Notes under the pieces: generated by a model
Databases searched by the model: none
Told to the model about the DNA's origin: nothing
What the model saw: the letters and a program-made list of their open reading frames with translations, nothing else
Position numbers and translations under genes: made by a program
Assembly (NCBI GenBank): GCA_000165345.1
Contig: CM000434.1
Coordinates: 128,001 to 192,000, forward strand
Direction: 5' to 3'
Length of the DNA stretch: 64,000 bases
In this document: piece by piece, positions 7,667 through 48,979 of the stretch
Layout of the letters: each line of letters opens with the position of its first letter
Position numbering within the stretch: the first letter of the stretch is position 1

Positions 7667-7676
7667 TTGGGCGCCA
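7667..7676. promoter_or_regulatory. E2F-like site TTGGGCGCCA, about 270 bp upstream of RPL23
   Basis: GC-rich GGCGCC core in an intergenic region that is otherwise more than 80% AT. The same core recurs upstream of many genes in this window. Confidence 0.5.
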
Positions 7677-30606: not shown

Positions 30607-30848
30607 CTTTTTTTCAGTATTTAGTATTTAATATGAATAAATTATCAATATTATCCAATTGAAGATAAATATTTTAAAGATATTTATTATATTAATTATT
30701 TAATAAATATATTTAGATAAGGAAAGAAAAGAAAGGATAAATTTACAGGTTGAAATATTTATTTTAACCCGATCTTTTTAAAAATATTCCTTCTTTCTCT
30801 CTTAATTTCCTTATTCTAATCTATTATATTAAATTGATTCCAATAAAA

Positions 30849-32750
30849 ATGGGTACCATTTCATCAATAATTAATTATTTATTACTATTAATAGCCATTT
30901 TGAATATTAAACAAACAGAAAAATTAACTTTAATAAATTCCTCCAATAAAATTATTAACCATATAAACTTATTGAAAAATGATGAAATTTTTGAAGTTTC
31001 TGGTAACTTGACCAATGAAGATGTATATAAATGGGCAACATCTTATCGTGATTATGAACAAGATTCAGAACATGATCATGAAAATGACTATGATGCTGAT
31101 ATTGAAGATAACATTGATGATGATGATGATGATTATGATGATGATGATCATCATCATCATCGTGATCGTATTCATAATAACAAATATGAAGATCATAACC
31201 AGTACCAAAACTCTCTTAGTTTAAATAAATCAAAACTTATATACTCAGACTCCGAATCTTTCCTAATTAACCCAAAATTAAAGAATATTTATGATTTTTC
31301 AAATAATAAACAAATTTATAAAACCATTAATGTATTAAATGTGAATGGAGAAATTATACCATATGATGTTTTTATCACTAATATTACCATACCACTCTTT
31401 GAAGTGAAAAATTCACTTTTTGTATGTAGAATTAGAATTGGTGAACCTGAACAAGAATTTTGGCCTATTATTGATACTGGAAGCAGTAATCTTTGGGTTA
31501 TTGGAGAAGAATGTAACCAATCAAGTTGTCAAAAAGTTAAAAGATATTCGAAATATATTTCAAAATCATTTAAAAGAATTTCCAAATATGATAATATTTC
31601 AGTAATTTTTGGTACTGGTAAAATTTATGGTAAATTAATTCTTGAAACACTTAAATTTGATAATTTCCAACTTAATAAACATGTTATTGGAATTATTGAA
31701 CAAGTGGAAAATACTGAAAATAGCAAAATTGATATATTTGATGCAATCGAACTTGAAGGTGTACTTGGACTTGGATTTACACAAATGTCTTCTTCAAAAA
31801 AACTTCAACTACCTTTAATTGAAAGACTTCAAAGTCAAGGACTTATTCAAAATAATATATTTTCTATATATATTAATGATTATAGAATTAAACCAATTAA
31901 TAATAATGATAAACTTTCAAAACCTTGTGCTATTTTATTACTTGGTGGAATTGATCAAAATCTATTTGAAGAAGAACTTCATATTCTTCCAGTTATTAGA
32001 GAACATTATTGGCAAGTTGAATTAGAATCACTTTATATTGGAGATACAAAATATTGTTGTGACTATGGATCTCTTGCTTATGAATGGGAAAATCTTGAAA
32101 ATGAACATTTATATAAAAAATTTGGACATTACGAAGATCCTCCAATGGATGTTTATATTTACAAAACTTTCAATAAAAGTATTGATAAAACTAATAGAAC
32201 TCCTGGATATGTTATTTTTGATTCCGGTACTTCTTTTTATACATTACCCAATTTTGAATATAATCATTTTATTAAAGAATATCAACCTTTTGGTGATTGT
32301 TCTCAAATTCATTTAGATTCTAAAAAGATTGATCCAAAAATCATTCAACATTTTCCTAATATTACTTATACTTTTAAAGATGGATTTCAACTTGTTATTC
32401 CACCTGAGCTTTATTTAACTCCAAATGAACAAGGAAAATGTAAACCTGGTATAATGATGATTGATGTACCAGGTGAATATGGACATTCATATTTACTTGG
32501 TTCATTATTTATGAGATCTTATTATACTGTTTATGCAAAAAATATCCCCAAGATTGGTTCAGCTGTTGGTATTGCCAAAGCTAAACATAATAAAGATACC
32601 AGAAAATATATTTATAGTAAACTTTCTTCGATTAATGAAACATTTGTACCTCCTGATGATGATGAAGCTGAATTATATTGGACTCAAATTAATGGAAGAT
32701 TGTCAGAAAATTGGAAATTTCCTCCAATTTTAGGTAATTTATTCTTTTAA
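30849..32750 (+). CDS. Pepsin-like (A1 family) aspartic protease with an N-terminal hydrophobic segment and a D/H-rich stretch
   Basis: Both catalytic motifs are present: IIDTGSSNLWVIG and VIFDSGTSFYTLP. The Y-flap region and the spacing are consistent with family A1. The real start is probably the ATG at 30849 (MGTISSIINYLLLL...). The ORF track begins at an upstream TTG at 30834. Confidence 0.85.
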   Translation: MGTISSIINYLLLLIAILNIKQTEKLTLINSSNKIINHINLLKNDEIFEVSGNLTNEDVYKWATSYRDYEQDSEHDHENDYDADIEDNIDDDDDDYDDDDHHHHRDRIHNNKYEDHNQYQNSLSLNKSKLIYSDSESFLINPKLKNIYDFSNNKQIYKTINVLNVNGEIIPYDVFITNITIPLFEVKNSLFVCRIRIGEPEQEFWPIIDTGSSNLWVIGEECNQSSCQKVKRYSKYISKSFKRISKYDNISVIFGTGKIYGKLILETLKFDNFQLNKHVIGIIEQVENTENSKIDIFDAIELEGVLGLGFTQMSSSKKLQLPLIERLQSQGLIQNNIFSIYINDYRIKPINNNDKLSKPCAILLLGGIDQNLFEEELHILPVIREHYWQVELESLYIGDTKYCCDYGSLAYEWENLENEHLYKKFGHYEDPPMDVYIYKTFNKSIDKTNRTPGYVIFDSGTSFYTLPNFEYNHFIKEYQPFGDCSQIHLDSKKIDPKIIQHFPNITYTFKDGFQLVIPPELYLTPNEQGKCKPGIMMIDVPGEYGHSYLLGSLFMRSYYTVYAKNIPKIGSAVGIAKAKHNKDTRKYIYSKLSSINETFVPPDDDEAELYWTQINGRLSENWKFPPILGNLFF

Positions 32751-32856: not shown

Positions 32857-35800
32857 TTATTTTTTCTCTGATAATTCCTTATTCTCCTTCTTTTCTTGTT
32901 GAATTGTATTAACTATATTAACATTTGAACTATTTATATTATAATCCTCCATTTCTAAACCATATTCTTCACTTTTAAGTATTAATTTATTCATTTTCTC
33001 TTTTTTATTATCTTTATAGACTTTAAATATTAATATTATGCCAAGTAATCCTATAATTGACCATATTACTGTTGTTATTAATATTAAAGTTACAATAATC
33101 CTTCCAAATGGGGAAGAATTAATAAATATATAAATTTTATCTGACATTATTCTATTCATTAATTTACTTATTGAACCTTGCCATACTTTTATTTCTCTTT
33201 CCTTGACTTTTCTCATTTCAATTTTATTAGGATTTACCATATCCCCAAAACTTGTCCCTATATAAGTTTTTCTATACCAATCTGAAGTATTGTTTTTTAA
33301 TTTTGTAATAAATTCATCTGCTTTTTTTAAATTCAAATGTAAATCTTCTATAGTATTTTCTTCATCTTTTAGTATTAGAATTCTATTTGTTGAATTATTT
33401 ATTTTCATTTCAGATTTAAAATGTGTGATTACTCTTATTACTCCTAAAGAATGATCCAAAACCATATCCACAATTTCAATTCCATTTTCATTTATTCCTA
33501 AGACTTGTATAATTGATTGTTTAAATGAATTAATAAAATTATCATAACCCATTGGCATAATTCTTTCATAAAATCCTGATAATTCGACTTTTAAAGCAAT
33601 ATCTCTTTTCTCTCCTTTTGGAATACATATATAACCATTACCATACCATCCAATAGGGCATGAACATATATATGATCCAATAGTATTAGTACATAATGAA
33701 TCTTCTCCACAATTATTTATTAACTCTCCATTATTTTTCTCATCACATTCATTAATATCAATACATCTTAAATCTTGATTTAATGATGAAATTCTATAAC
33801 CTTTTTTACATCCACAATAATGATTATAACTTTTATCATCTTCTAAATCATTTGAAATTAATGATAAAAGAGATTTTTCTTGATAATCATTAATACTTTT
33901 TCTTTTTTCATCAATAATATTTCCATAACTCTCAGAATTATTTTCTATATTAGTGTTTTGAATAATGCATTGTAATCCTTTTGGACAAAATAGACTTTTT
34001 TCTGATTGCTCTTCATCAATTCCTCTAGAAAAATCGATTTGAGTCTCTGGACCTATTACCAATTCTTGAAAAGATTTGTCAAAACAAACATTTTCCTGAA
34101 TACAACTCTTTTTTCCATCACCATAATATCCTGGTTTACAAACACAACTATAACTTCCCTCTTTATTTATACATAAAGCAAGAGGATGACATGGCCTCTT
34201 CAAACCTGAAGGAGTTACTATATGTCTTCTAATTGATGAAAACGGTGAATTTAAAATACTAGTAATCTCTCTTGTTCTTTCAATGGTTGGATATATTGCA
34301 TTATTTGTATTATAACCCATATAAATATCCCCTTGTCTTTGTTCTTTCTCCTCTATTTGAAATTGTCTATTATGTTCTTCACATTCATTAATATCCTCAC
34401 AACTATGTCTGAAAAATATATTTCCAGTTTTACTATCAATTAATCTAATAACTTGATGTTGAAATCCTTCATCACAAATACAATAATTATTTACTTTATT
34501 TATTAATTGATTTGGTTGATTATTACCATTTTCCTGACTATTATTTATATCAGAAAATATATTTCTCATAATATGTGAAGAACTATTCATATTTATAGTC
34601 ATTTTTGATTTTAAACATTTTGAATTTTTCCAACATATTCTTCCATCCATATTATCACATTCAACATGTATTGAATGACTTTCTAAAAAGTTTGGTACCA
34701 TTTTCTTTTTCTGTACTTTATTTTCATCAATCATTGTTTTATTCTTCATTCCTATATCTAATACTTTATCACAATCCTTACTATCATTAATACAAAATAT
34801 ATCACATATACCATCTTCTAACCAATCAGTATTACATTCTTTTCCAGTATAAATTTGATTAAATTCTTCATTTAAATGATAATCCTTTAATTTAGTTCCA
34901 AAATCCATATTTACACCTAATATAGATAACTCATCATATCCATTAGATGTTATTGAATATCTACCAATTAGAACTCTTTTATTTCCAATATTATCCAAGC
35001 TTTTACTAGATTGATATTTTCTTTCTCTTAATTCTATTTTATTATTCCATTCAAAAATCATTTCCTTTTGTACAAGGGTAATCAATTGAATTCTTCTAGA
35101 TTTTATTGAAATTTCATCATATTTTGGTAATATATTAATACCAATTAATGGATAACTTAAGCCATTTAAATAGCCTGAAAATTTTGAATATAAATCACAT
35201 ATTTGCTGATAAATTTCATCAAAGTATTTGTTTCTTCTTGTATCCACTTTTAAATAATATATAATAGGTACCAAATATCCTCCATCTTCTTTTTTCTTCT
35301 CTGTCATACCTTCAGATGTTGAAATTAATAATTTAGATCCATTAATAGTTTTATTAAATACTAGATATGCAATAATGGCTCCATTTTTATCATTTTCAAT
35401 TTCATATTTATTATTATAATATAAAAAATGACCAGTAAAGTGATTTTTTTCCATATCAGTTATTAAAGTTAAGTTAGAATGGATAATTTTCTCTTCTTTA
35501 TTATTATCATTATTCTTTGCTATTTGATATATTTCATATCCAATATGTTCATAAGTTGTTGTAATTATACCATTAGATTTAATTCTGGTAGGAAAAATTA
35601 ATAAAATTGGCACCATATTATTTATACTTTGATTTATTGGATACGTAATTAAAGTCTGAGATGATATTACTTGATTATCCATTCTTGAAGTGAATAAAAT
35701 TTGATTTGTAGAATTTTCTTTACAAGGAATTATATTTAGTAGAGTTGTATTCATTTTTATTATAGAATCTGAATAACTGGAATCAGAATTGAAATTAGAA

Positions 35801-37680
35801 TTAATTTCTTCAAAATGATGATTACCTTTATACTTCAACTCCAAATTACATAATTGACCTGGTTTATTAATCAATATGTCACTAATTATTTGAACCCATT
35901 TATAATTTGTTTGTTTAGTATATTTTTTTGCAAGTGATTTTGCTACTGCTTCATTTCTACATAATACTTGTTGATCAGGATCTGGATAATAGATGGATAC
36001 CCCTGTAAACCTTGATTCTAATATATTCGAATTTTTATTATAAACATTACTTAAAGCATACTTTTTATTCAAATCTCTATTATTAAATAATTCTCCTTGG
36101 CAATTACCATAAAGTTCACTATCAGGATCAGTACATTCTTGAATATTAACACTAGCAATCTGCATATTATAATATGAATCCAAAGTTAATGCCAATAATT
36201 CTTGAATAGAATTATCTAAAAAAAATTCTTGGGATAGATAACTTCTTAATAATTCAAGCATATCTCCCATATCATAACAACTGCATAAGTTCGAGATATC
36301 ACAATTTTCAATTTTCTTTGAATTTAAGATTGTTCTCTTTAATAAATCACTAATATTCTCTCCACCACATTTATATAATATTGTAAATAGATTATAAAGA
36401 TTAAATCTGAAAATTCTGTAAAACTCAGTATTTATAAGCGATAAAGTTAATGGATAACTTTGTGAATGAAGAGTATATCCATAAACAATTCTTGAAGCAT
36501 ACTCTAAAGGAGTTGCAATCCTATACTCTTGAACTTTATTAGGTCCAAAAATTTGAACTTCATCTTCAGCTGATCCTTTTTTAGTTACAGGATTTAAAGA
36601 TCTAAAATTCCAACCATGTCCTGGTTCATTATCTTCACTAGCTAATATATAATTTGCTAATGAATTCATAACTTCTAATACATCAAATTGCATCATTAAA
36701 CATGCATCAAAACCAAGTATATCAAATTTGAACTCAAATGAGAAATTTTCTCCTGTTTTTCCTCCAATTTTACTATTCATAATTCCTTCTTTAATTCCTC
36801 TATACATTTCACCTAGAAACATTCCATTTCCATCAGCATTGTCATGATCATCACCAAAACCAGACCATGCTGAACCATGATTCCAAAGAGTTAGTGCCGA
36901 ATATATTGAGGGAAATGAATCCAAACCTTTTGAAATAAAATTTGAAAGTATTTCAGGTGAATTTGAATCAACTTCTCCTAAATCTTCTAATATAATCCAT
37001 ACAAATTTCTTCCTAAATTGTACCCTTAATTCTTGAGTTAATCTCCATCTATATAGAATATAAGCTCCAGTAAAATTTTGTGAAATTTGTTCCTGTTTTA
37101 TCATAGGATTTGTTAATCCACTTTCTGGGCACGATATTATAGGAGCTGAAACATCTTTGTTTGTAAAATCTTTGCACCTGTCAATGTATACTACTAAGTG
37201 AAGATGATCTGCTGTTTGAGTTTGTAATGGACTTGTCATTTCTCCTAAGTCCACTAAAGACATTGATTCCAAGTTATTATCTGCATGAATAAATATTAAA
37301 TGCGTCCAATATCTTTTTTCATGAATTCTTTCCTTATTTATAGTTGAACAAACTTTACTATATTGAAATTCTAATTGATCATTTTTATTTTTAGGTGGTT
37401 CTTCTTCTTTTTTTATTGAACTCAAAACTACTTCTTCCTTTGAATTGTTATGAGACTTTTTTTCTGACCTAATATTATTTGTTTTATCCACATTATAATT
37501 ATCATTATGATTAACTTCCTCTATATCAGTAATAGTGCTATTCACTTTTGAGCTTTGCAAATTTTGATATTTGTCCACATTAACATAATTTTCTGGTAAA
37601 TACAGGAAACTTGAAATTGGTTGAATATCAAAAATAAACTTAATTGTAACCAAAAATACAAAAGTTATCTCTCTTTTCAT
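32857..37680 (-). CDS. Large type I membrane/secreted protein, 1607 aa: signal peptide, clostripain-like (peptidase C11-like) domain, at least two EGF / Ca-binding EGF modules, one C-terminal transmembrane helix
   Basis: N-terminal hydrophobic signal. IFIHADNNLESMSLVDLGEMT, LWNHGSAWSGFG and ILGFDACLMMQFDVLEVM resemble the ADNNLE / His / FDAC(L/M)M Cys blocks of family C11. The EGF modules are CHPLALCINKEGSYSCVCKPGYYGDGKKSC and DINECDEKNNGELINNCGEDSLCTNTIGSYICSCPIGWYGNGYIC. The TM helix is IIVTLILITTVIWSIIGLLGIILIF. Confidence 0.55.
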   Translation of the reverse strand: MKREITFVFLVTIKFIFDIQPISSFLYLPENYVNVDKYQNLQSSKVNSTITDIEEVNHNDNYNVDKTNNIRSEKKSHNNSKEEVVLSSIKKEEEPPKNKNDQLEFQYSKVCSTINKERIHEKRYWTHLIFIHADNNLESMSLVDLGEMTSPLQTQTADHLHLVVYIDRCKDFTNKDVSAPIISCPESGLTNPMIKQEQISQNFTGAYILYRWRLTQELRVQFRKKFVWIILEDLGEVDSNSPEILSNFISKGLDSFPSIYSALTLWNHGSAWSGFGDDHDNADGNGMFLGEMYRGIKEGIMNSKIGGKTGENFSFEFKFDILGFDACLMMQFDVLEVMNSLANYILASEDNEPGHGWNFRSLNPVTKKGSAEDEVQIFGPNKVQEYRIATPLEYASRIVYGYTLHSQSYPLTLSLINTEFYRIFRFNLYNLFTILYKCGGENISDLLKRTILNSKKIENCDISNLCSCYDMGDMLELLRSYLSQEFFLDNSIQELLALTLDSYYNMQIASVNIQECTDPDSELYGNCQGELFNNRDLNKKYALSNVYNKNSNILESRFTGVSIYYPDPDQQVLCRNEAVAKSLAKKYTKQTNYKWVQIISDILINKPGQLCNLELKYKGNHHFEEINSNFNSDSSYSDSIIKMNTTLLNIIPCKENSTNQILFTSRMDNQVISSQTLITYPINQSINNMVPILLIFPTRIKSNGIITTTYEHIGYEIYQIAKNNDNNKEEKIIHSNLTLITDMEKNHFTGHFLYYNNKYEIENDKNGAIIAYLVFNKTINGSKLLISTSEGMTEKKKEDGGYLVPIIYYLKVDTRRNKYFDEIYQQICDLYSKFSGYLNGLSYPLIGINILPKYDEISIKSRRIQLITLVQKEMIFEWNNKIELRERKYQSSKSLDNIGNKRVLIGRYSITSNGYDELSILGVNMDFGTKLKDYHLNEEFNQIYTGKECNTDWLEDGICDIFCINDSKDCDKVLDIGMKNKTMIDENKVQKKKMVPNFLESHSIHVECDNMDGRICWKNSKCLKSKMTINMNSSSHIMRNIFSDINNSQENGNNQPNQLINKVNNYCICDEGFQHQVIRLIDSKTGNIFFRHSCEDINECEEHNRQFQIEEKEQRQGDIYMGYNTNNAIYPTIERTREITSILNSPFSSIRRHIVTPSGLKRPCHPLALCINKEGSYSCVCKPGYYGDGKKSCIQENVCFDKSFQELVIGPETQIDFSRGIDEEQSEKSLFCPKGLQCIIQNTNIENNSESYGNIIDEKRKSINDYQEKSLLSLISNDLEDDKSYNHYCGCKKGYRISSLNQDLRCIDINECDEKNNGELINNCGEDSLCTNTIGSYICSCPIGWYGNGYICIPKGEKRDIALKVELSGFYERIMPMGYDNFINSFKQSIIQVLGINENGIEIVDMVLDHSLGVIRVITHFKSEMKINNSTNRILILKDEENTIEDLHLNLKKADEFITKLKNNTSDWYRKTYIGTSFGDMVNPNKIEMRKVKEREIKVWQGSISKLMNRIMSDKIYIFINSSPFGRIIVTLILITTVIWSIIGLLGIILIFKVYKDNKKEKMNKLILKSEEYGLEMEDYNINSSNVNIVNTIQQEKKENKELSEKK

Positions 37681-37950
37681 TATTTCACATTATTAAGTTC
37701 AATATTTGTAGATTTAATTCAAATTTCTTTGAATATAACTTAATAGAAAATATTATTATTTATTAAAATTATACATTATATAGAATATATGTATTTAATA
37801 TTATTTATTGTACTGTTTCTATTATTTAAATTCTTCTTTTTTAAAAAAATAAGATTTACTATCAAAGAATACCAAACTTACTTATTTCAATGCACACGAC
37901 CCCCCAATTTTTTTATTACTTAAAAAATATTATTTGTTTTTCTAATTTGC

Positions 37951-38060
37951 ATGTGGTGTCAATCATATACCGGTCTGCATGCAAAGGCGCTGAAATGCAA
38001 AAGGCGCCAAGGCCACTTACGTGGCAAGAAATAAAAATATTATACAGATTAAAAGGTGGA
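37951..38060. promoter_or_regulatory. Divergent promoter cluster: CATGTGGTG ... ATACCGGTCTGCATGCAAAGGCGCTGAAATGCAAAAGGCGCCAAGG ... ACTTACGTGG ... GGTGGACAT
   Basis: The GCATGCA, E2F GGCGCC, ACCGGT and GTGGACA motifs are packed within 110 bp. The cluster lies between the clostripain-like gene and the 38259 gene. Confidence 0.55.
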
Positions 38061-38258
38061 CATGAATAATTAGTATAAAGAAAAATAATAATAATTCGCA
38101 CTTTTAGACTAAAAAAGATTTTTTTTTTTTTTTAATTAATTGAATAAAAAATATTTATGGATAAATCAGGTGATTATGTACAAATCTTAAGAATTGCTCA
38201 CTTACTCTTCGTAACTTAGGAGTTTAAGAGAAGAGAGAAAATATAGAGAAAAATAAAG

Positions 38259-41200
38259 ATGGATCCTGTGGGAGCAATGAAGTCAATGATGGGAATGGTT
38301 GGATCTAACCTAGTTAGTTCAGCAAAACATGCAACTAAGCAAATGGTGAGTAAGATCCGTCAGAAAGCTGATCCCAGATCATATAGTAGCTCAAAAAAGA
38401 AAAAAAATAAAGCTGATAATGGTCAGAATATAGAAGGTACAAATATAAGTGATGACGATGATTTGAATGATTCAATGCTTCCTAATAGAAGAGATCATGG
38501 CAAAGAAGCAAGGAATAGAGATATAAATGGAGAAAATCTGGAAGTTAACAGTAATTTAACTCATGAATCATCAGATGACGAGTCAATTTTGGATTTTAGA
38601 GATCGAGTTGTAACAGAACAAGAATTCAAGAGATTAGCAGAACTTCTTGGTAGAGATATAAAAATGACAAATAGAGGTAATTCTGAAATGGAGAAACAAA
38701 TATGGTTAACTCCAAGAAGATTTAGGACTACAATACGATCAGTGCAGATTGAAAATCTAACAAAAATTGAACAGAAGAATGTATTTTTAGAATTTTCATT
38801 TGGAGGAACACTTACAGAAGTTAGACTATTGAATAGTAATACCGGCCAAGAAGTTCCAAGATTGTTGGGATATCCAGCATGCAAAGAATTTTTTACACAT
38901 ACTGTTGATATTAAACCGTTTTATATTGAAAATAATGATGAGTTACTTATTGATATTCCTGATGAAAATGGTAAAGACTATGATATGGAGCTCAAAAATA
39001 ATAATTCGATTGAAATTTCATTAGATGAAACTTTTGAATGGAGAGGTAGTTATTTACATTTAGAAAGGGAATTATTTAGAATTATTGCTTGGAGAGCTAA
39101 TTCAGCAACTGTTAATGAGTTATTAGGATATAATGAAGATATATTAAAAAATTATGCAACGGGAAGTGTTAATCAAATGATTACTTTATCAAAAAGAACA
39201 CATAATAATATATCAAATCCTATTTTTAGAATTACATTACAAATTATATTTCAAGAAATTTATGATTTTCAACTAAGCCTATCTCAATTCACTTTAAGAA
39301 ATATTAGTAATGACAATGAGAATTCCTCTCCTTCAGAACGAAAACATTCTCAAAATATTTATAATGATCATGAAATTGAATATAATCATGACAAAAAAAG
39401 TAACAAAAAGCAAACTAGTCGTGATAATACAAATATAATTAACGATCAAAATACTGTAAAAATTGATTTGAGAGATGATCAAGAATTAAATTTTAATGAA
39501 AAAGGAAGGCTTATTTCTAATAATCATTCAACATCTTGTAGATTGAATATCAAGTTCCCATCTTTTGGAATAGATAATCCTTTACCAACTAAATGTACTT
39601 CAACTTGGTCAGAATGTTATGAGAAACAAAATAAAATTATTAGATGGGATAATATTGGTATGATTCCTTTTAGAGGTACAATACATGAATTGGAAAGAAA
39701 TAATTTACATGCAAATTTAGAAATTAATTCAACTGGCAAAACTCATAATATTTTTAAATCTACAAAACAAGTCCATTGTACTTTTAATCTTAAAAATATT
39801 GTCTATTATCCCTATATTCAGACTGAAATTAAGCTTCCTGATGGAGAATCTTGTATACTTGAAGGAAAAATAGAATTTGGAAATATACCCAAATATCATC
39901 AATTGGGTAATATTTTAGAAATTGATGATGAAAATAAATTATATCTTATAATCAAAATTATTCGAATTGATAATTTAATCTTGAACATTTATGAAGTCAA
40001 CAATATTCTTCAAGATACTGAAAATGATGATTCTATGGATGTTTATGTTCAGTTAAGCTTTGATGGTAATCGAAAAGAAACGCCTGTAGTTTCTGGTACA
40101 TTACATCCACTCTTTCAAACTGAACTTACATTTATATTGGATTATATTGATCATGAAAAAAAGCCTAACGAACTTGACGCTCATTCTTTAGCCAAACTTT
40201 TAGAAAGAAAAGGTCCGATTGTTATTGATGTGTGGAGAAAAAATAAATCATCAATGGCACAACATTTAGGATGGACTGAAATTCATTGGAAAGATATTCT
40301 AATAAAAACTAATCATTCAAATTATTCTGGAAATGAATTTTCTGATTTAAAATTAAATCAACAATTCTCACCTTTAAAATTTGACCCTACTAATAATTTA
40401 ATGGACAATGCTAGTAATGCATGCTTAGGCGCCAACATGCTTAGGCGCCAAGAATACCGAAAATTTTATGATCGCAATATAGGTAAAGAAGTTGTATATG
40501 AAACAAGAGTATATCAGGATGCGAGTATATTATATAATTTAGGTCAAAGGCCCAGTTCTTTAGGGTCTTATACAAATGAAACAATCTCGCCGAAAGTATA
40601 TTTGGAAATATGGACAAAGCCTGATATAAGTTGCATGTATAATATTGGTTCAACGTCAGCATTACTAGTAAGAGGTAATAATGAAGTTGTGGGAGAAGTT
40701 TCTAAATATTTTGTTGATCGATTAAATAGAATTGTTGAGTGGTCAGGCATTGGTCCATCATTAAAGAATTCAAGAATAAGATCAAATATTTTTTATTGGG
40801 AATATGTTACTAAATCATTTGAGACTTGGGGAAGACAATATTCATATTATAGTTTGGATTCAAGAGGTGTAAGGCACTTACTTCCATCATTCTTACAACC
40901 TTTAAAACCTCTTACTGGTGTTGATAATTCCTCAAAAGTACATCATTTTATTCATTCTTTTCCATATTTACCAACTACAAATAATGAAATATGGAGAACT
41001 CCTGATTTATTCTTATTATCAAGACAAGGTACTCCATTTGATCATACATTATTGCAGGTATGTTTATTATTGGGTTTAAATAGAATAGCTTTTTTGGCAT
41101 GCGGTACTTTATTGAATAGAGATCCATATTCATGGGCAGTAACTATACATTATGAGTATATTATGAGTGAAAATGATGATTTATTTAATTTAAGTAAGGA

Positions 41201-43256
41201 TGGAAATTTATTTAAAAAAGAATCTCATGGAATTGGAGGTAGAAGTAGGAGAGTTTCTACTCTTAATTTTGGAAGAAATAAAAAACATAGTAATATGAGG
41301 TCAATATCACCAGCATTAATGAAGACAACATCTGATAGGAAGAATTATAAATCAGAAAAAAGTCATATATTAGGATCTAATCGAAGTAAAATGAGGTCAT
41401 TATCTCCAATTTCTATTAATCTTGGTCAAAGGATGCATAGGAAGTCATCTATTATTAATGATAATGAACATCGATTTAGTTTAAGTAAATCAACTGAAGC
41501 AATTCATGATCATAATCATAATACATCATCAAAAAATAGTATTAGACAAAATTCTATAAGATTTTATGCATTATTTTGGGATACTGTAAAACATGTTGTT
41601 TATAGAGTTAATGATATTGTTCAAGAATCAAAACATGATGAATTTATTCAATGGATTAAAGAAGAAGGATATGATATTAATCAGTTAAATGAATTAGCAT
41701 TAGAATCATTATTTTCTCAAAGAAATTATCATCAAGATAAATATAGAAATATACAATATAAACCAAATTTCTGTTTAAAAGTTATTAATAAGTTACCATA
41801 TAGAACTTTGGATTTATTGGTTAATAATAAAAATATATATGCAAATATACAACAAGTTAATGATCCATTAAAATTATCATATAATTTAAATGATAGTAAG
41901 CTTTGGTATTCATTCTTTCCAAAAAAAACTGATCAATTTAATCATATTAAAATGAATAATCAAAGAATTCAAGGAGAAATTGAAGGTAAAGGAATATTAA
42001 ATCAATTACCAATAACACAAAATAGTTCAAATATATCAGCATGTTTTTCATGGCCAATAATTAATCTTGTAACTGATACTACTAGTAATAAACCTGGAAA
42101 GAATAATAAAGGAAGATCAGTTACTGGTGATTATCATATTCATAATAATAATAGTAATAATGATTATTTTGATCAAGATCAATTTGGAAGATCTAATAAT
42201 AAAGATAAGAATATTAATGGTATTATTGGTAATGATCATAAGAGTAAAGGTAAAGCAAATAACGGTTTAAAATCATCTACTGGAATGAGTTTTGGATTAA
42301 ATAGGTCAAAAGATGAACATTCAAGTATAGAGAAGAAGTTTTTAGAGAATAATGTGATTATGGATGCTGAACTAGATTTATATTGTAGAAGTATTAATGA
42401 TGAGATTATGAGATATGTACAGATTCAAAGATTTCAAAAATCACGTACAATAGGTACAAGATGGAATAGAGAAAACGAGAATATGATATTTTTAAGAATG
42501 GGATTAAAGTTATTAGGTAAATGGGAGATGTCAGATCCATATACTCGTGATTATTATAAAAATAAGACTGAATTTTTGAAATGGAGAGAATCATTTTTAT
42601 CAACAGTACCAACAAAATATAGGATGAAATATGCAATATTGACTTTTCCATGTAATGTTCCAAAATGGATAGCACAACAAGTTTGGTTTAAATGTAGCTT
42701 TTTATCAAATGAGACTGATAAAAGATCAATATTTTCTTTATCAGTAGATATTAATAGTTGGCCAAATAATATTCAATCAATAAGGATATTAATATTGGTA
42801 GTACATCCTTTGAAATCTAATCAGCTTAGAAAGCTTCAATTATTACAAAAGATGAGTATATCAAATTCAGTTAGTAACAATAATATCAATAACAACAATA
42901 ATAATAACAATAATAGTAACAATATTCATCAAACAATGAAGATTAATATAAAAGGTCCTTCCAGGAATGAAAGAGAAAATATTTCTGATTCAATTAAAGA
43001 AGATAATAATAAAGGTAATGATAAAGTAACAAAGCAAGGTTTGGATAAATTAGAAATTCCAGAATTCTCAAATGAATTATTGATAAAGGAGAGTGATAAA
43101 AAGAGCGTGGATGAGGATAAGGATGAGAAAAAGAAGGAAGATAAAGAGGAAAAGAAGAAAAAGGATAACAATAGCGAAAAAGAGAGAAGAAGAGCATCTT
43201 CAATTATATTCTCAGACGAAGAAGATGAGCCTGAGCTTAAACTGTTACATCCATAA
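38259..43256 (+). CDS. Very large hypothetical protein (1665 aa) with C2-like beta-sandwich regions in the N-terminal half and a basic, K/E/D-rich C-terminal tail
   Basis: Complete ATG to TAA ORF. Segments such as DVYVQLSFDGNRKETPVVSGTLHPLFQTELTF look like a C2 domain. No firm family assignment. Confidence 0.5.
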   Translation: MDPVGAMKSMMGMVGSNLVSSAKHATKQMVSKIRQKADPRSYSSSKKKKNKADNGQNIEGTNISDDDDLNDSMLPNRRDHGKEARNRDINGENLEVNSNLTHESSDDESILDFRDRVVTEQEFKRLAELLGRDIKMTNRGNSEMEKQIWLTPRRFRTTIRSVQIENLTKIEQKNVFLEFSFGGTLTEVRLLNSNTGQEVPRLLGYPACKEFFTHTVDIKPFYIENNDELLIDIPDENGKDYDMELKNNNSIEISLDETFEWRGSYLHLERELFRIIAWRANSATVNELLGYNEDILKNYATGSVNQMITLSKRTHNNISNPIFRITLQIIFQEIYDFQLSLSQFTLRNISNDNENSSPSERKHSQNIYNDHEIEYNHDKKSNKKQTSRDNTNIINDQNTVKIDLRDDQELNFNEKGRLISNNHSTSCRLNIKFPSFGIDNPLPTKCTSTWSECYEKQNKIIRWDNIGMIPFRGTIHELERNNLHANLEINSTGKTHNIFKSTKQVHCTFNLKNIVYYPYIQTEIKLPDGESCILEGKIEFGNIPKYHQLGNILEIDDENKLYLIIKIIRIDNLILNIYEVNNILQDTENDDSMDVYVQLSFDGNRKETPVVSGTLHPLFQTELTFILDYIDHEKKPNELDAHSLAKLLERKGPIVIDVWRKNKSSMAQHLGWTEIHWKDILIKTNHSNYSGNEFSDLKLNQQFSPLKFDPTNNLMDNASNACLGANMLRRQEYRKFYDRNIGKEVVYETRVYQDASILYNLGQRPSSLGSYTNETISPKVYLEIWTKPDISCMYNIGSTSALLVRGNNEVVGEVSKYFVDRLNRIVEWSGIGPSLKNSRIRSNIFYWEYVTKSFETWGRQYSYYSLDSRGVRHLLPSFLQPLKPLTGVDNSSKVHHFIHSFPYLPTTNNEIWRTPDLFLLSRQGTPFDHTLLQVCLLLGLNRIAFLACGTLLNRDPYSWAVTIHYEYIMSENDDLFNLSKDGNLFKKESHGIGGRSRRVSTLNFGRNKKHSNMRSISPALMKTTSDRKNYKSEKSHILGSNRSKMRSLSPISINLGQRMHRKSSIINDNEHRFSLSKSTEAIHDHNHNTSSKNSIRQNSIRFYALFWDTVKHVVYRVNDIVQESKHDEFIQWIKEEGYDINQLNELALESLFSQRNYHQDKYRNIQYKPNFCLKVINKLPYRTLDLLVNNKNIYANIQQVNDPLKLSYNLNDSKLWYSFFPKKTDQFNHIKMNNQRIQGEIEGKGILNQLPITQNSSNISACFSWPIINLVTDTTSNKPGKNNKGRSVTGDYHIHNNNSNNDYFDQDQFGRSNNKDKNINGIIGNDHKSKGKANNGLKSSTGMSFGLNRSKDEHSSIEKKFLENNVIMDAELDLYCRSINDEIMRYVQIQRFQKSRTIGTRWNRENENMIFLRMGLKLLGKWEMSDPYTRDYYKNKTEFLKWRESFLSTVPTKYRMKYAILTFPCNVPKWIAQQVWFKCSFLSNETDKRSIFSLSVDINSWPNNIQSIRILILVVHPLKSNQLRKLQLLQKMSISNSVSNNNINNNNNNNNNSNNIHQTMKINIKGPSRNERENISDSIKEDNNKGNDKVTKQGLDKLEIPEFSNELLIKESDKKSVDEDKDEKKKEDKEEKKKKDNNSEKERRRASSIIFSDEEDEPELKLLHP
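40420..40451 (+). repeat. Perfect tandem duplication of the 16-mer CATGCTTAGGCGCCAA inside the 38259-43256 CDS
   Basis: Two identical adjacent copies (40420-40435 and 40436-40451), each containing the E2F-type GGCGCC core. The unit length is not a multiple of three, yet the ORF remains open across both copies. Confidence 0.8.
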
Positions 43257-43466: not shown

Positions 43467-44525
43467 TTAGAAATCTGCATTCAAATCAAACTTTTGGTCA
43501 TCTTGATTGACCATAACTCCAGCCATTTGATATTCACCAACTCTCTTTTCGAAGAAGTTAGTTTTACCTTGAAGTGAAATAAGGTCCATCCAATCAAAAG
43601 GATTAGAAACGTTGTAGATTTTTGGAATATCCAAGGCAAAAAGTAATCTATCAGCAACAAATTCAATATATTGGGCCATAAGTCTCGAATTCATACCAAT
43701 AAGATCAACAGGAAGAGAGTCACAAAGAAAGTTTCTTTCAACTTCAACAGCTTCTGATATGATTTGTTGTACTCTAGGAGCTGGTAATTTAAATTTAAGG
43801 GCTTTATATATTAAACAAGCAAAATCAGCATGGAGACCTTCATCACGACTAATAAGTTCATTAGAAAATGTGAGTCCAGGCATAAGTCCACGTTTTTTAA
43901 GCCAAAAAATTGCACAAAAGCTACCAGAAAATAGAATTCCTTCAACAGCACAGAATCCAATAATTCTTTCAGCAAAAGATCGCTCAGAATTCATCCATTT
44001 AGTTGCCCATTCTGCTTTCTTTTTTACAGCTTCAATATGAGAAATTGCTTCAAAGAGCATTTGACGTTCTTTAATTTCAGTAATATATCTATCAATAAGT
44101 AATGAATAAGTTTCACTATGTATTTGTTCAATAGACATTTGAAAAGCATAATACATTCTAGCTTCCGGTATTTGTATTTCTCTAAGGAAATTTACTGCTA
44201 AGTTTTCCATAACAATACCATCACTTGCAGCAAAGAATGCTAAAACATATTTGATAAAATGTCTTTCAGGGTCTTTAAGACTTTCCCAATCTCTAGTATC
44301 TTGACTTAGATCAATTTCTTCAGTAACCCAAAACGACGCTTCAGCTTTTTTATACATTGACCAAATATCTTTAATTAATTCTTTCAATTCATTTCTATTT
44401 TCTCGGCTGTATTTAAGCATTGGTTCATTAACTTGATTTATTTTTACTTCATTCACAAGTTTTTCAATATTTTCTTCATCTTTTGTTTCCTTTGTTAAAA
44501 TTACATTATTATTTTCCTCTGTCAT
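43467..44525 (-). CDS. RNR2: Ribonucleotide reductase small subunit (R2), apparently catalytically competent, 352 aa
   Basis: [16 protein letters not shown] with the Asp ligand. [25 protein letters not shown] with the Glu and His ligands and the radical Tyr (E-x2-H-x3-Y). [23 protein letters not shown] and [10 protein letters not shown] with the second Glu and His pair. The C-terminus ends ...KFDLNADF, the R1-binding tail. Confidence 0.93.
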
Positions 44526-48858: not shown

Positions 48859-48979
48859 GTGCATGCGCATGCACCATTCCTCCCCCCCCCTTCACCTCTT
48901 CCCGCATTTCTAATATTTATATTACGTGTTCTTTAAATTCTTTTTTAAAAACAAATGCATGCATGCATTTATGTGGACA
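48859..48979. promoter_or_regulatory. Divergent promoter (mucin-like gene / P5A-ATPase) with GTGCATGCGCATGCAC, a C-rich CCTCCCCCCCCC run, TTACGTGT, AATGCATGCATGCATTT and TGTGGACA
   Basis: The densest GCATGC cluster in the window. Confidence 0.55.

Follow-up and report, generated by a model that had tools for sequence, protein, structure and literature searches.

Clostripain of Hathewaya (Clostridium) histolyticum (MEROPS C11.001, PDB 9cip) is an Arg-specific, thiol-dependent and Ca2+-dependent protease that the bacterium secretes as a soluble protein and that excises a linker peptide behind its catalytic His during maturation. The C11 enzymes of Bacteroidetes, PmC11 (3uws/4yec) and the secreted B. 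thetaiotaomicron proteases 6n9j and iotapain (6nag), are ~350-aa single-domain proteins, and bacterial members of the family are activated by cleavage at a Lys/Arg ~9 residues past an 'HG.AWL' motif. PmC11 chains are split at this position in the PDB entries, which reflects autoprocessing at a basic residue. Among parasitic protists, T. brucei possesses the family C11 protease PNT1, which has the His-Cys dyad, is kinetoplast-localised, belongs to a highly divergent clade and has neither EGF modules nor a transmembrane (TM) helix (PMC4850289). In the same study, Cryptosporidium, coccidian, chromerid and green-algal C11 proteins clustered with bacterial and archaeal ones, lateral transfer was suggested, and the C11 phylogeny contained a C. 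parvum entry, MEROPS MER037012 (PMC4850289). Here we analysed the C. parvum gene cgd6_670, located in a 64,000-nucleotide stretch of chromosome 6 (GenBank assembly GCA_000165345.1, contig CM000434.1, positions 128,001 to 192,000 of the forward strand), which we refer to as the window and whose numbering is used throughout. Since cgd6_670 encodes the sole C. parvum C11 protein found in our homologue search, we take MER037012 to be this protein. As judged from sequence comparison, cgd6_670 combines a cysteine protease of bacterial (clostripain-like) type, which appears to have retained its activity, with EGF modules of the animal type.

cgd6_670 is a single-copy, intronless gene for a mosaic protein predicted to be a type I membrane protein. 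Its open reading frame (ORF) had been noticed in an earlier reading of the DNA letters alone (the sequence-only reading), and the frame proved to be exactly as described: it occupies 32857-37680 on the reverse strand, starts with ATG, runs for 1607 aa with zero internal stops, and its translation is 100% residue-identical to C. parvum Iowa II EAK89763.1 as well as to QOY40944.1 and other public entries. Public C. parvum assemblies, in which the chromosome measures 1.3 Mb, call the gene with identical boundaries and neighbours. The locus name is that used in PMC13095730 and PMC8710574, and the UniProt entry is Q5CXK9. We considered whether this could be a chance ORF or a mis-annotation with no real protein-coding gene behind it. 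In the window, which has 24.5% G+C, ~8.9% of random codons are stops, and the chance of 1607 stop-free codons is ~10^-65. In addition, orthologues exist in all sequenced Cryptosporidium species at identities falling from 97% to 40%, and both transcripts and peptides of cgd6_670 have been detected. These data exclude a chance ORF, to which we assign a negligible probability. Remoter homologues were found in Eimeria, Cyclospora and Cystoisospora, with ~30% identity across the C11 region. The database record EAK89763.1, like MEROPS and UniProt, already lists a clostripain-like domain, a Notch module, EGF modules and a TM helix. Because this architecture is publicly annotated, cgd6_670 and its domain organisation are already known and do not represent a new kind of object. 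Our additions are modest, namely two extra degenerate EGF modules, a SEA-like domain, an insert in a calcium-binding EGF (cbEGF) module, the absence of a basic activation site, and the connection of an intact active site with expression in females or gametocytes of two lineages.

The sequence-only reading had assigned the ectodomain to a peptidase C11-like fold on the basis of ADNNLE, HG and FDACLM-type blocks. All three blocks were located in the protein, as HADNNLE (aa 132-138), WNHGS (aa 266-270) and GFDACLM (aa 323-329), and the Pfam profile Peptidase_C11 (PF03415) matched aa 130-416 with E=5.1e-25 and 89.2 bits (cut-off 25.8). ADNNLE and FDACLM are letter-identical between cgd6_670 and clostripain, which falls in the same Pfam family and likewise has the H-G histidine and an S1 Asp two residues before the Cys. 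The His/Cys dyad is intact. His268, Asp325 and Cys327 are invariant both in an alignment of 11 Cryptosporidium sequences and in an alignment of 19 homologues that adds 8 eimeriid sequences. In the latter, the blocks surrounding the active site (HADNNLE, LWNHGSAW.GFGDD, GFDACLM and ASE(D/E)NEPGHGWN) are also invariant from C. parvum to Eimeria. A search of PDB sequences with the homologue profile retrieved C11 structures at 1e-11 to 6e-4, including 6n9j (1e-11), clostripain 9cip (8.5e-10), the zymogen C11 protease 6mzo and PmC11 (3uws/4yec). In single-sequence and profile searches His268 and Cys327 aligned with the dyad motifs of clostripain, PmC11, 6n9j and 6mzo, and Asp325 aligned with the FDAC of clostripain and of the bacterial C11 structures. 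The closest characterised relatives of cgd6_670 are bacterial: clostripain, PmC11, 6n9j and iotapain, whereas PNT1, the eukaryotic C11 enzyme described in the literature searched, falls into another clade. The sequence-only reading was to be given up if no C11 match was found or if the dyad residues were substituted; the match is significant and both residues are in place.

To extend the comparison to structure, an AlphaFold2 model of aa 100-940 was used, in which the mean predicted local distance difference test score (pLDDT) was 56.6 overall and 70-85 in the C11 core. The four significant Foldseek matches of this model against the PDB were all 6n9j and iotapain 6nag, with probability 1.0, E values of 5e-8 to 2e-5, ~420 aligned columns spanning the whole target and a target-normalised TM-score of ~0.5. 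The Bacteroidetes C11 enzymes are the best matches of cgd6_670 in both structure and sequence profile, with dyad and S1 Asp aligned, at an identity of 11-16%. Because the Foldseek alignment covers the whole target, the model contains the complete clan CD alpha/beta/alpha C11 fold, including a C-terminal subdomain that lies beyond the reach of the Pfam match. Foldseek also returned integrin beta I-domains (E ~1e-2), which we dismissed as generic Rossmann-like similarity. By all family criteria tested (profile match, dyad, S1 Asp and fold), cgd6_670 belongs to family C11. Judged from these alignments and the model, the full catalytic apparatus is kept, comprising His268, Cys327 and Asp325, the counterpart of the S1 Asp that confers Arg/Lys specificity in clostripain and PmC11.

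In other respects cgd6_670 departs from the bacterial enzymes: it has no Lys/Arg in the catalytic-His loop and carries ~1000 residues more than clostripain (beta spacer, a segment resembling a Lin-12/Notch repeat (LNR), EGFs, SEA-like domain and TM helix). The loop after His268 (aa 269-294; window 36799-36876, reverse strand) consists of an invariant acidic motif, GFGDDHDNADGNGM (GFGDDHDxxDGxGM), free of Lys/Arg, and the first basic residues beyond it are R294 and K297. Characterised C11 members activate themselves at a basic residue, but membership of the family does not depend on this property. Because the loop has no Lys/Arg, activation cleavage, if needed, would have to fall elsewhere, with R294 and K297 as the first candidates. 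We asked whether the protein might instead be a pseudo-protease or adhesin, in which the C11 fold is a binding scaffold and the EGF modules mediate adhesion or receptor functions such as gamete recognition or tethering of the sporozoite to the wall. Adhesion and receptor proteins typically contain modules of the EGF, LNR and SEA-like kinds, no activity is reported in the literature searched, and the catalytic His is not followed by a basic activation site of the usual kind. However, His268, Asp325 and Cys327 together with the ADNNLE, WNHGS, GFDACLM and SEDNEPGHGWN blocks do not vary between C. parvum and Eimeria, and the C11 catalytic core is the slowest-evolving region of the protein by per-domain identity: C. 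parvum and C. andersoni share 66% of residues in the core against 44% over the whole protein, 29% in the beta spacer, 31% in the SEA-like domain and 16% in the cytoplasmic tail. Pseudo-enzymes normally lose such residues. Given the invariance of dyad, S1 Asp and flanking blocks in 19 sequences and the slow evolution of the core, we judge a pseudo-protease unlikely.

The stage at which cgd6_670 acts can be approached through published expression data, the check proposed by the sequence-only reading. In the supplements of Tandel 2019 (PMC6877471), cgd6_670 stands at ~2.0 log2 counts per million in asexual parasites and at ~6.0 (in vitro) or 6.3 (in vivo) in sorted females, which amounts to a ~16-fold rise (log2 fold change 3.97). 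It is also among the C. parvum female genes that have an orthologue among the gametocyte genes of E. tenella. This orthologue, ETH_00028250, has normalised counts of 4650 in gametocytes, 3.3 in merozoites and 133 in sporozoites, that is, 1390-fold more in gametocytes than in merozoites (adjusted p 4.8e-24) and 35-fold more than in sporozoites (adjusted p 2.8e-14) (PMC4345034 and supplements). At the protein level, cgd6_670 was quantified at low abundance in excysted oocyst material, which consists of oocyst walls plus released sporozoites (PMC12548878), tandem mass spectrometry (MS/MS) peptides were detected in the insoluble excysted fraction (PMC13095730), and its hyperLOPIT class is given second-hand as 'oocyst wall' in the tabulation of PMC13095730. 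An antibody whose peptide antigen was WNHGSAWSGFGDD, which is the very loop of the catalytic His (aa 266-278), produced a granular, non-micronemal immunofluorescence in sporozoites (PMC8710574). Tandel et al. 2019 (PMC6877471) count numerous secreted proteases among the female-specific genes and ascribe to them a presumed role in building or modifying the oocyst wall.

These data bear on the suggestion of the sequence-only reading that the product is a parasite surface, adhesion or processing protein. Its parasite origin was confirmed, whereas the published data point to the female gamete and oocyst rather than to the surface of invasive stages. The latter placement would make cgd6_670 a sporozoite or merozoite adhesin-protease that is shed by a rhomboid protease during invasion, and it draws on the listing of cgd6_670 as an in-silico candidate rhomboid substrate (PMC13095730), on the MS/MS peptides in the excysted insoluble fraction, and on the combination of type I topology and a conserved stalk of small residues (SSPFG). 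Against this, the sporozoite immunofluorescence was granular/cytosolic and not micronemal, the tabulated hyperLOPIT class is neither microneme nor surface, the transcript is low in oocysts/sporozoites and in asexual stages and goes up in females, and the Eimeria orthologue is gametocyte-specific. We therefore regard a role on the invasive stages as improbable, to about the same degree as a pseudo-protease.

The proposed membrane topology was examined from the two ends of the protein. The N-terminus has a basic start, MKRE, followed by a hydrophobic stretch at aa 5-23 (mean Kyte-Doolittle 1.64), of which the hydrophobic character but not the sequence is kept across all orthologues, consistent with a putative signal peptide. 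At the other end, the single TM helix and short tail described by the sequence-only reading were confirmed at aa 1528-1551, with the most hydrophobic 19-residue window at aa 1533-1551 (mean Kyte-Doolittle 2.71) and 56 aa following the helix; the UniProt limits, as cited in PMC13095730, are 1528-1550. The tail is nearly missing in C. canis, C. felis, C. bovis and C. ryanae. In the stalk motif YIFINSSPFG just outside the membrane, Y1517, S1523 and P1524 are invariant and G1526 is almost invariant, and this stalk may serve as a cleavage site. We infer a type I topology for the protein.

Between the protease and the membrane lies an array of small modules. The sequence-only reading had counted at least two EGF/cbEGF modules and had named one DINECDE start. 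Such modules are present, yet they were under-counted: the EGF-like modules number four and are accompanied by an LNR-like module and a SEA-like domain. The Pfam profile EGF_3 matched two stretches (E=1.2e-11, 45.1 bits, cut-off 28.5), as did EGF_CA (E=1.1e-08, 35.5 bits, cut-off 27), and in Foldseek the EGF region matched the EGF arrays of NELL, uromodulin and Notch with E values from 1e-5 to 1e-3. The protein contains 42 cysteines, and those of the EGF modules are all invariant in the Cryptosporidium alignment; the cysteines and their invariance define four EGF-like modules, not two. To assign calcium binding, we looked for a D-x-[DN]-E-C start and a C-x-[DN]-x4-[FY]-x-C-x-C hydroxylation motif in addition to the Pfam profile. 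The named DINECDE start is present at aa 1308, a second start (DINECEE) occurs at aa 1096, and Asx-hydroxylation motifs are found at aa 1170 and 1330, so that two of the four modules have the profile, the Ca2+-ligand start and the Asx-hydroxylation motif. In cbEGF module 2 the gap between Cys1 and Cys2 is 63 residues, whereas the equivalent eimeriid module is canonical with 44 aa. On this comparison the ~56-residue insert is Cryptosporidium-specific. Its conservation matches that of the catalytic core, with 68% of residues shared by C. parvum and C. andersoni, and the AlphaFold model contains no confident fold for it.

UniProt annotates a 'notch domain' in cgd6_670, according to PMC13095730. 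We found no match to Pfam Notch (PF00066) in the protein, including in a search at E<=10. Nevertheless, aa 949-970 (CNTDWLEDGICDIFCINDSKDC) are in register with eimeriid segments that pass Pfam Notch with 23.2 and 25.5 bits (cut-off 21.2), following the pattern C..WL.DGICD..C...D..DC, whereas the segment of cgd6_670 itself has only four Cys in place of the six of an LNR; the LNR assignment is thus made because of the alignment to eimeriid homologues. N-terminal to it, the middle region (aa 615-945) had no Pfam match at E<=10 and only weak FN3/arrestin-like Foldseek matches. The beta spacer within this region has two sequence relatives among 1.84 billion cluster representatives, both of them Cryptosporidium-lineage orthologues, and no detectable sequence relatives outside Cryptosporidium; it looks genus-restricted or fast-evolving. 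Next to the membrane, aa 1358-1495 are modelled as a beta-alpha-beta-beta-alpha-beta ferredoxin-like fold, as in SEA domains. Generic ferredoxin folds, e.g. Cas6, score similarly to SEA against this domain, there was no Pfam SEA match at E<=10, and no conserved G|S autoproteolysis motif (G|SVVV) was present, the beta2-beta3 turn being the unconserved HSLGVIRV. True membership in the SEA family was rejected on the last two grounds, and according to the model the juxtamembrane domain is SEA-like in fold only. cgd6_670 therefore has LNR-like and SEA-like segments that lack the sequence hallmarks of those families. Animal membrane proteins with comparable modules, such as TMPRSS6/matriptase-2 and enteropeptidase, which have a membrane-adjacent SEA domain, and the Notch-type EGF/LNR receptors, offer an analogy only; TMPRSS6 and enteropeptidase are serine-class enzymes of type II topology with a non-homologous protease domain.

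The coccidian orthologues, comprising E. tenella ETH_00028250, further Eimeria, Cyclospora and Cystoisospora proteins and T. gondii CBDP3 (TGME49_269930), share with cgd6_670 the C11 core (~42% identity in the core, active site invariant), an LNR-like segment, the cbEGFs, a C-terminal TM helix where the sequence is complete, and gametocyte/female-biased expression. They are larger proteins, which carry sizeable extensions at the N-terminus as well as insertions within the C11 domain, and they differ further in having a full-length LNR that passes Pfam and a canonical cbEGF where Cryptosporidium has the insert.

Taken together, we favour, with a probability of roughly 0.6, the interpretation that cgd6_670 encodes a type I membrane protease of family C11 that is active, probably cuts specifically after Arg/Lys, and belongs to the secretory pathway of the macrogamete and oocyst. 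The placement in macrogamete and oocyst is supported by the female expression, the oocyst proteomics, the tabulated hyperLOPIT class and the non-micronemal immunofluorescence. In the proposed arrangement, a signal peptide would be followed by a low-complexity linker, the C11 domain, the beta spacer, the shortened LNR, four EGF-like modules of which two would bind Ca2+, the SEA-like domain, the TM helix and the tail. The protease would point either into the secretory lumen or to the cell exterior, and a stalk of EGF, LNR and SEA-like modules stiffened by Ca2+ may keep it away from the membrane. From what is known of the family, it would be a thiol endopeptidase and not a pseudo-enzyme, and it would share with clostripain and PmC11 the cleavage after Arg/Lys. 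Published expression and proteomics would place its action in the macrogamete, zygote or oocyst and not in invasion, with secreted oocyst-wall or wall-associated precursors as the most likely substrates, and the protein itself may be released by cutting at the conserved juxtamembrane stalk.

Several observations weigh against this interpretation. PmC11 carries a basic autoprocessing site behind its catalytic His, for which cgd6_670 offers no counterpart, since the stretch of 25 residues following His268 is acidic and free of Lys/Arg, and the predicted structures are of moderate confidence (mean pLDDT 57 and 52). The experiment behind the 'oocyst wall' class used oocyst/sporozoite material. The oocyst-wall proteome of Wang 2022 does not list cgd6_670, and the abundance of both its transcript and its protein is low. 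The role of the Toxoplasma relative CBDP3 is termed 'elusive' in PMC13095730, and the literature searched reports no enzymatic activity, substrate or knockout phenotype for cgd6_670 or its apicomplexan orthologues. Biochemical data on thiol-dependent endopeptidase activity of cgd6_670 were likewise not found in that literature.

Table 1. Features of cgd6_670 and its upstream spacer in the window, listed from the N-terminus of the protein
Feature	Position in window	Strand	Evidence
Complete intronless coding sequence, 1607 aa + stop	32857..37680	-	exact match to EAK89763.1; public gene calls
N-terminal hydrophobic segment aa 1-24 (putative signal peptide)	37609..37680	-	mean Kyte-Doolittle 1.64; depositors annotate signal peptide
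Low-complexity linker aa 25-118, poorly conserved	37327..37608	-	18% identity C. parvum vs C. andersoni
Peptidase C11 domain aa 120-615 (catalytic core + C-terminal subdomain)	35836..37323	-	Pfam, PDB profile, Foldseek, conservation
Predicted catalytic His268 codon (WNHGS)	36877..36879	-	invariant in 19 homologues; aligned to C11 H-G motif
Asp325-Ala326-Cys327 codons (FDACLM; predicted S1-pocket Asp + catalytic Cys)	36700..36708	-	invariant in 19 homologues; FDAC alignment
Beta-rich spacer aa 650-935, no family assignment	34876..35733	-	predicted strands, pLDDT 60-85
Shortened LNR-like module aa 949-970, 4 Cys + conserved Asp	34771..34836	-	alignment to eimeriid homologues; no own Pfam match
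EGF-like module 1 aa 1008-1094, long variable loops	34399..34659	-	six-Cys C..C..C..CxC..C pattern, invariant Cys
cbEGF module 2 aa 1096-1193, DINEC start, Asx-hydroxylation motif, Cys1-Cys2 insert	34102..34395	-	Pfam, motifs, conservation
EGF-like module 3 aa 1199-1306, C..C..C..CxC..C pattern, long fast-evolving loops	33763..34086	-	cysteine pattern, alignment
cbEGF module 4 aa 1308-1352, canonical, DINECDE start, Asx-hydroxylation motif	33625..33759	-	Pfam, motifs, Foldseek
Membrane-adjacent ferredoxin-like (SEA-like) alpha/beta domain aa 1358-1495	33196..33609	-	
Conserved stalk motif YIFINSSPFG aa 1517-1526 just outside membrane (candidate shedding site)	33103..33132	-	alignment
Single transmembrane helix aa 1528-1551	33028..33099	-	mean Kyte-Doolittle 2.71
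Lys/Glu-rich cytoplasmic tail aa 1552-1607 (56 aa), poorly conserved	32860..33027	-	0-16% identity in distant species
Divergent intergenic spacer, 578 bp, GC-rich motif cluster (TGCATGCA, GGCGCC) at ~37950-38010	37681..38258	.	

The sequence-only reading had further described a divergent pairing of this gene with a large C2-domain gene across a shared promoter. The pairing holds: cgd6_680 (38259-43256, forward strand, 1665 aa) begins 578 bp away, ATG to ATG, and carries a C2 domain together with a CEP76 peptidase-like domain (PF24656, E=8e-18). Because of these two domains, the product of cgd6_680 is, by sequence, a CEP76-like protein of the centrosome/cilium type. Two short GC-containing palindromes, TGCATGCA and GGCGCC, are both present in the spacer. 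In the window TGCATGCA has 6 copies against 0.36 expected (at 955, 12375, 37976, 48956-48967 and 60534) and GGCGCC has 7 against 0.08 (at 7670, 22112, 38003, 40428, 40444, 44796 and 47158), mostly between ORFs. From their resemblance they are probably known Cryptosporidium upstream regulatory motifs. In Tandel 2019 (PMC6877471), cgd6_670 is in the female-vs-asexual differential table, whereas cgd6_680 is absent from it and belongs to another cluster with higher and flatter expression. Co-regulation of the two genes is thus unsupported, and the 'shared promoter' is only positional. Past cgd6_680, the next gene is cgd6_690, which encodes the ribonucleotide reductase small subunit (43467-44525, reverse strand; public gene calls, PF00268).

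On the other side, the convergent neighbour cgd6_660 (30834-32750, forward strand) encodes a secreted pepsin-like aspartyl protease (Pfam Asp, E=5e-49), and its stop lies 106 bp from that of cgd6_670. The N-terminal region of cgd6_660 is acidic/His-rich and of low complexity, and in public assemblies the protein has 633 aa, with an ATG five codons inside a TTG-started ORF. The window as a whole is dense with long, apparently intronless ORFs, as expected for C. parvum.

A more far-reaching version of the proposal is that, in cgd6_670 and its coccidian orthologues, a bacteria-derived C11 protease became fused to animal-type LNR/EGF/SEA-like modules and now works as an active, tethered, Arg/Lys-specific enzyme, specific to macrogamete and oocyst, that processes oocyst-wall or sporozoite-tether precursors and is needed for transmission. 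We put this forward tentatively and think it rather doubtful as a whole. If true, cgd6_670 would provide Apicomplexa with their first functional C11 protease and transmission blocking with a target that lacks a host homologue; we know of no human homologue of family C11. In that case the cbEGF2 insert, together with the acidic loop found in place of the activation site, would point to a new and possibly Ca2+-dependent form of regulation. At a more practical level, the SEA-like domain, the four EGFs, the cbEGF insert and the absent basic activation site could guide construct design and mutagenesis. As an uncharacterised enzyme with an intact conserved active site, female/gametocyte-biased expression in two distant lineages and an association with the oocyst, cgd6_670 is a reasonable candidate for studies of oocyst-wall biogenesis and of transmission blocking.

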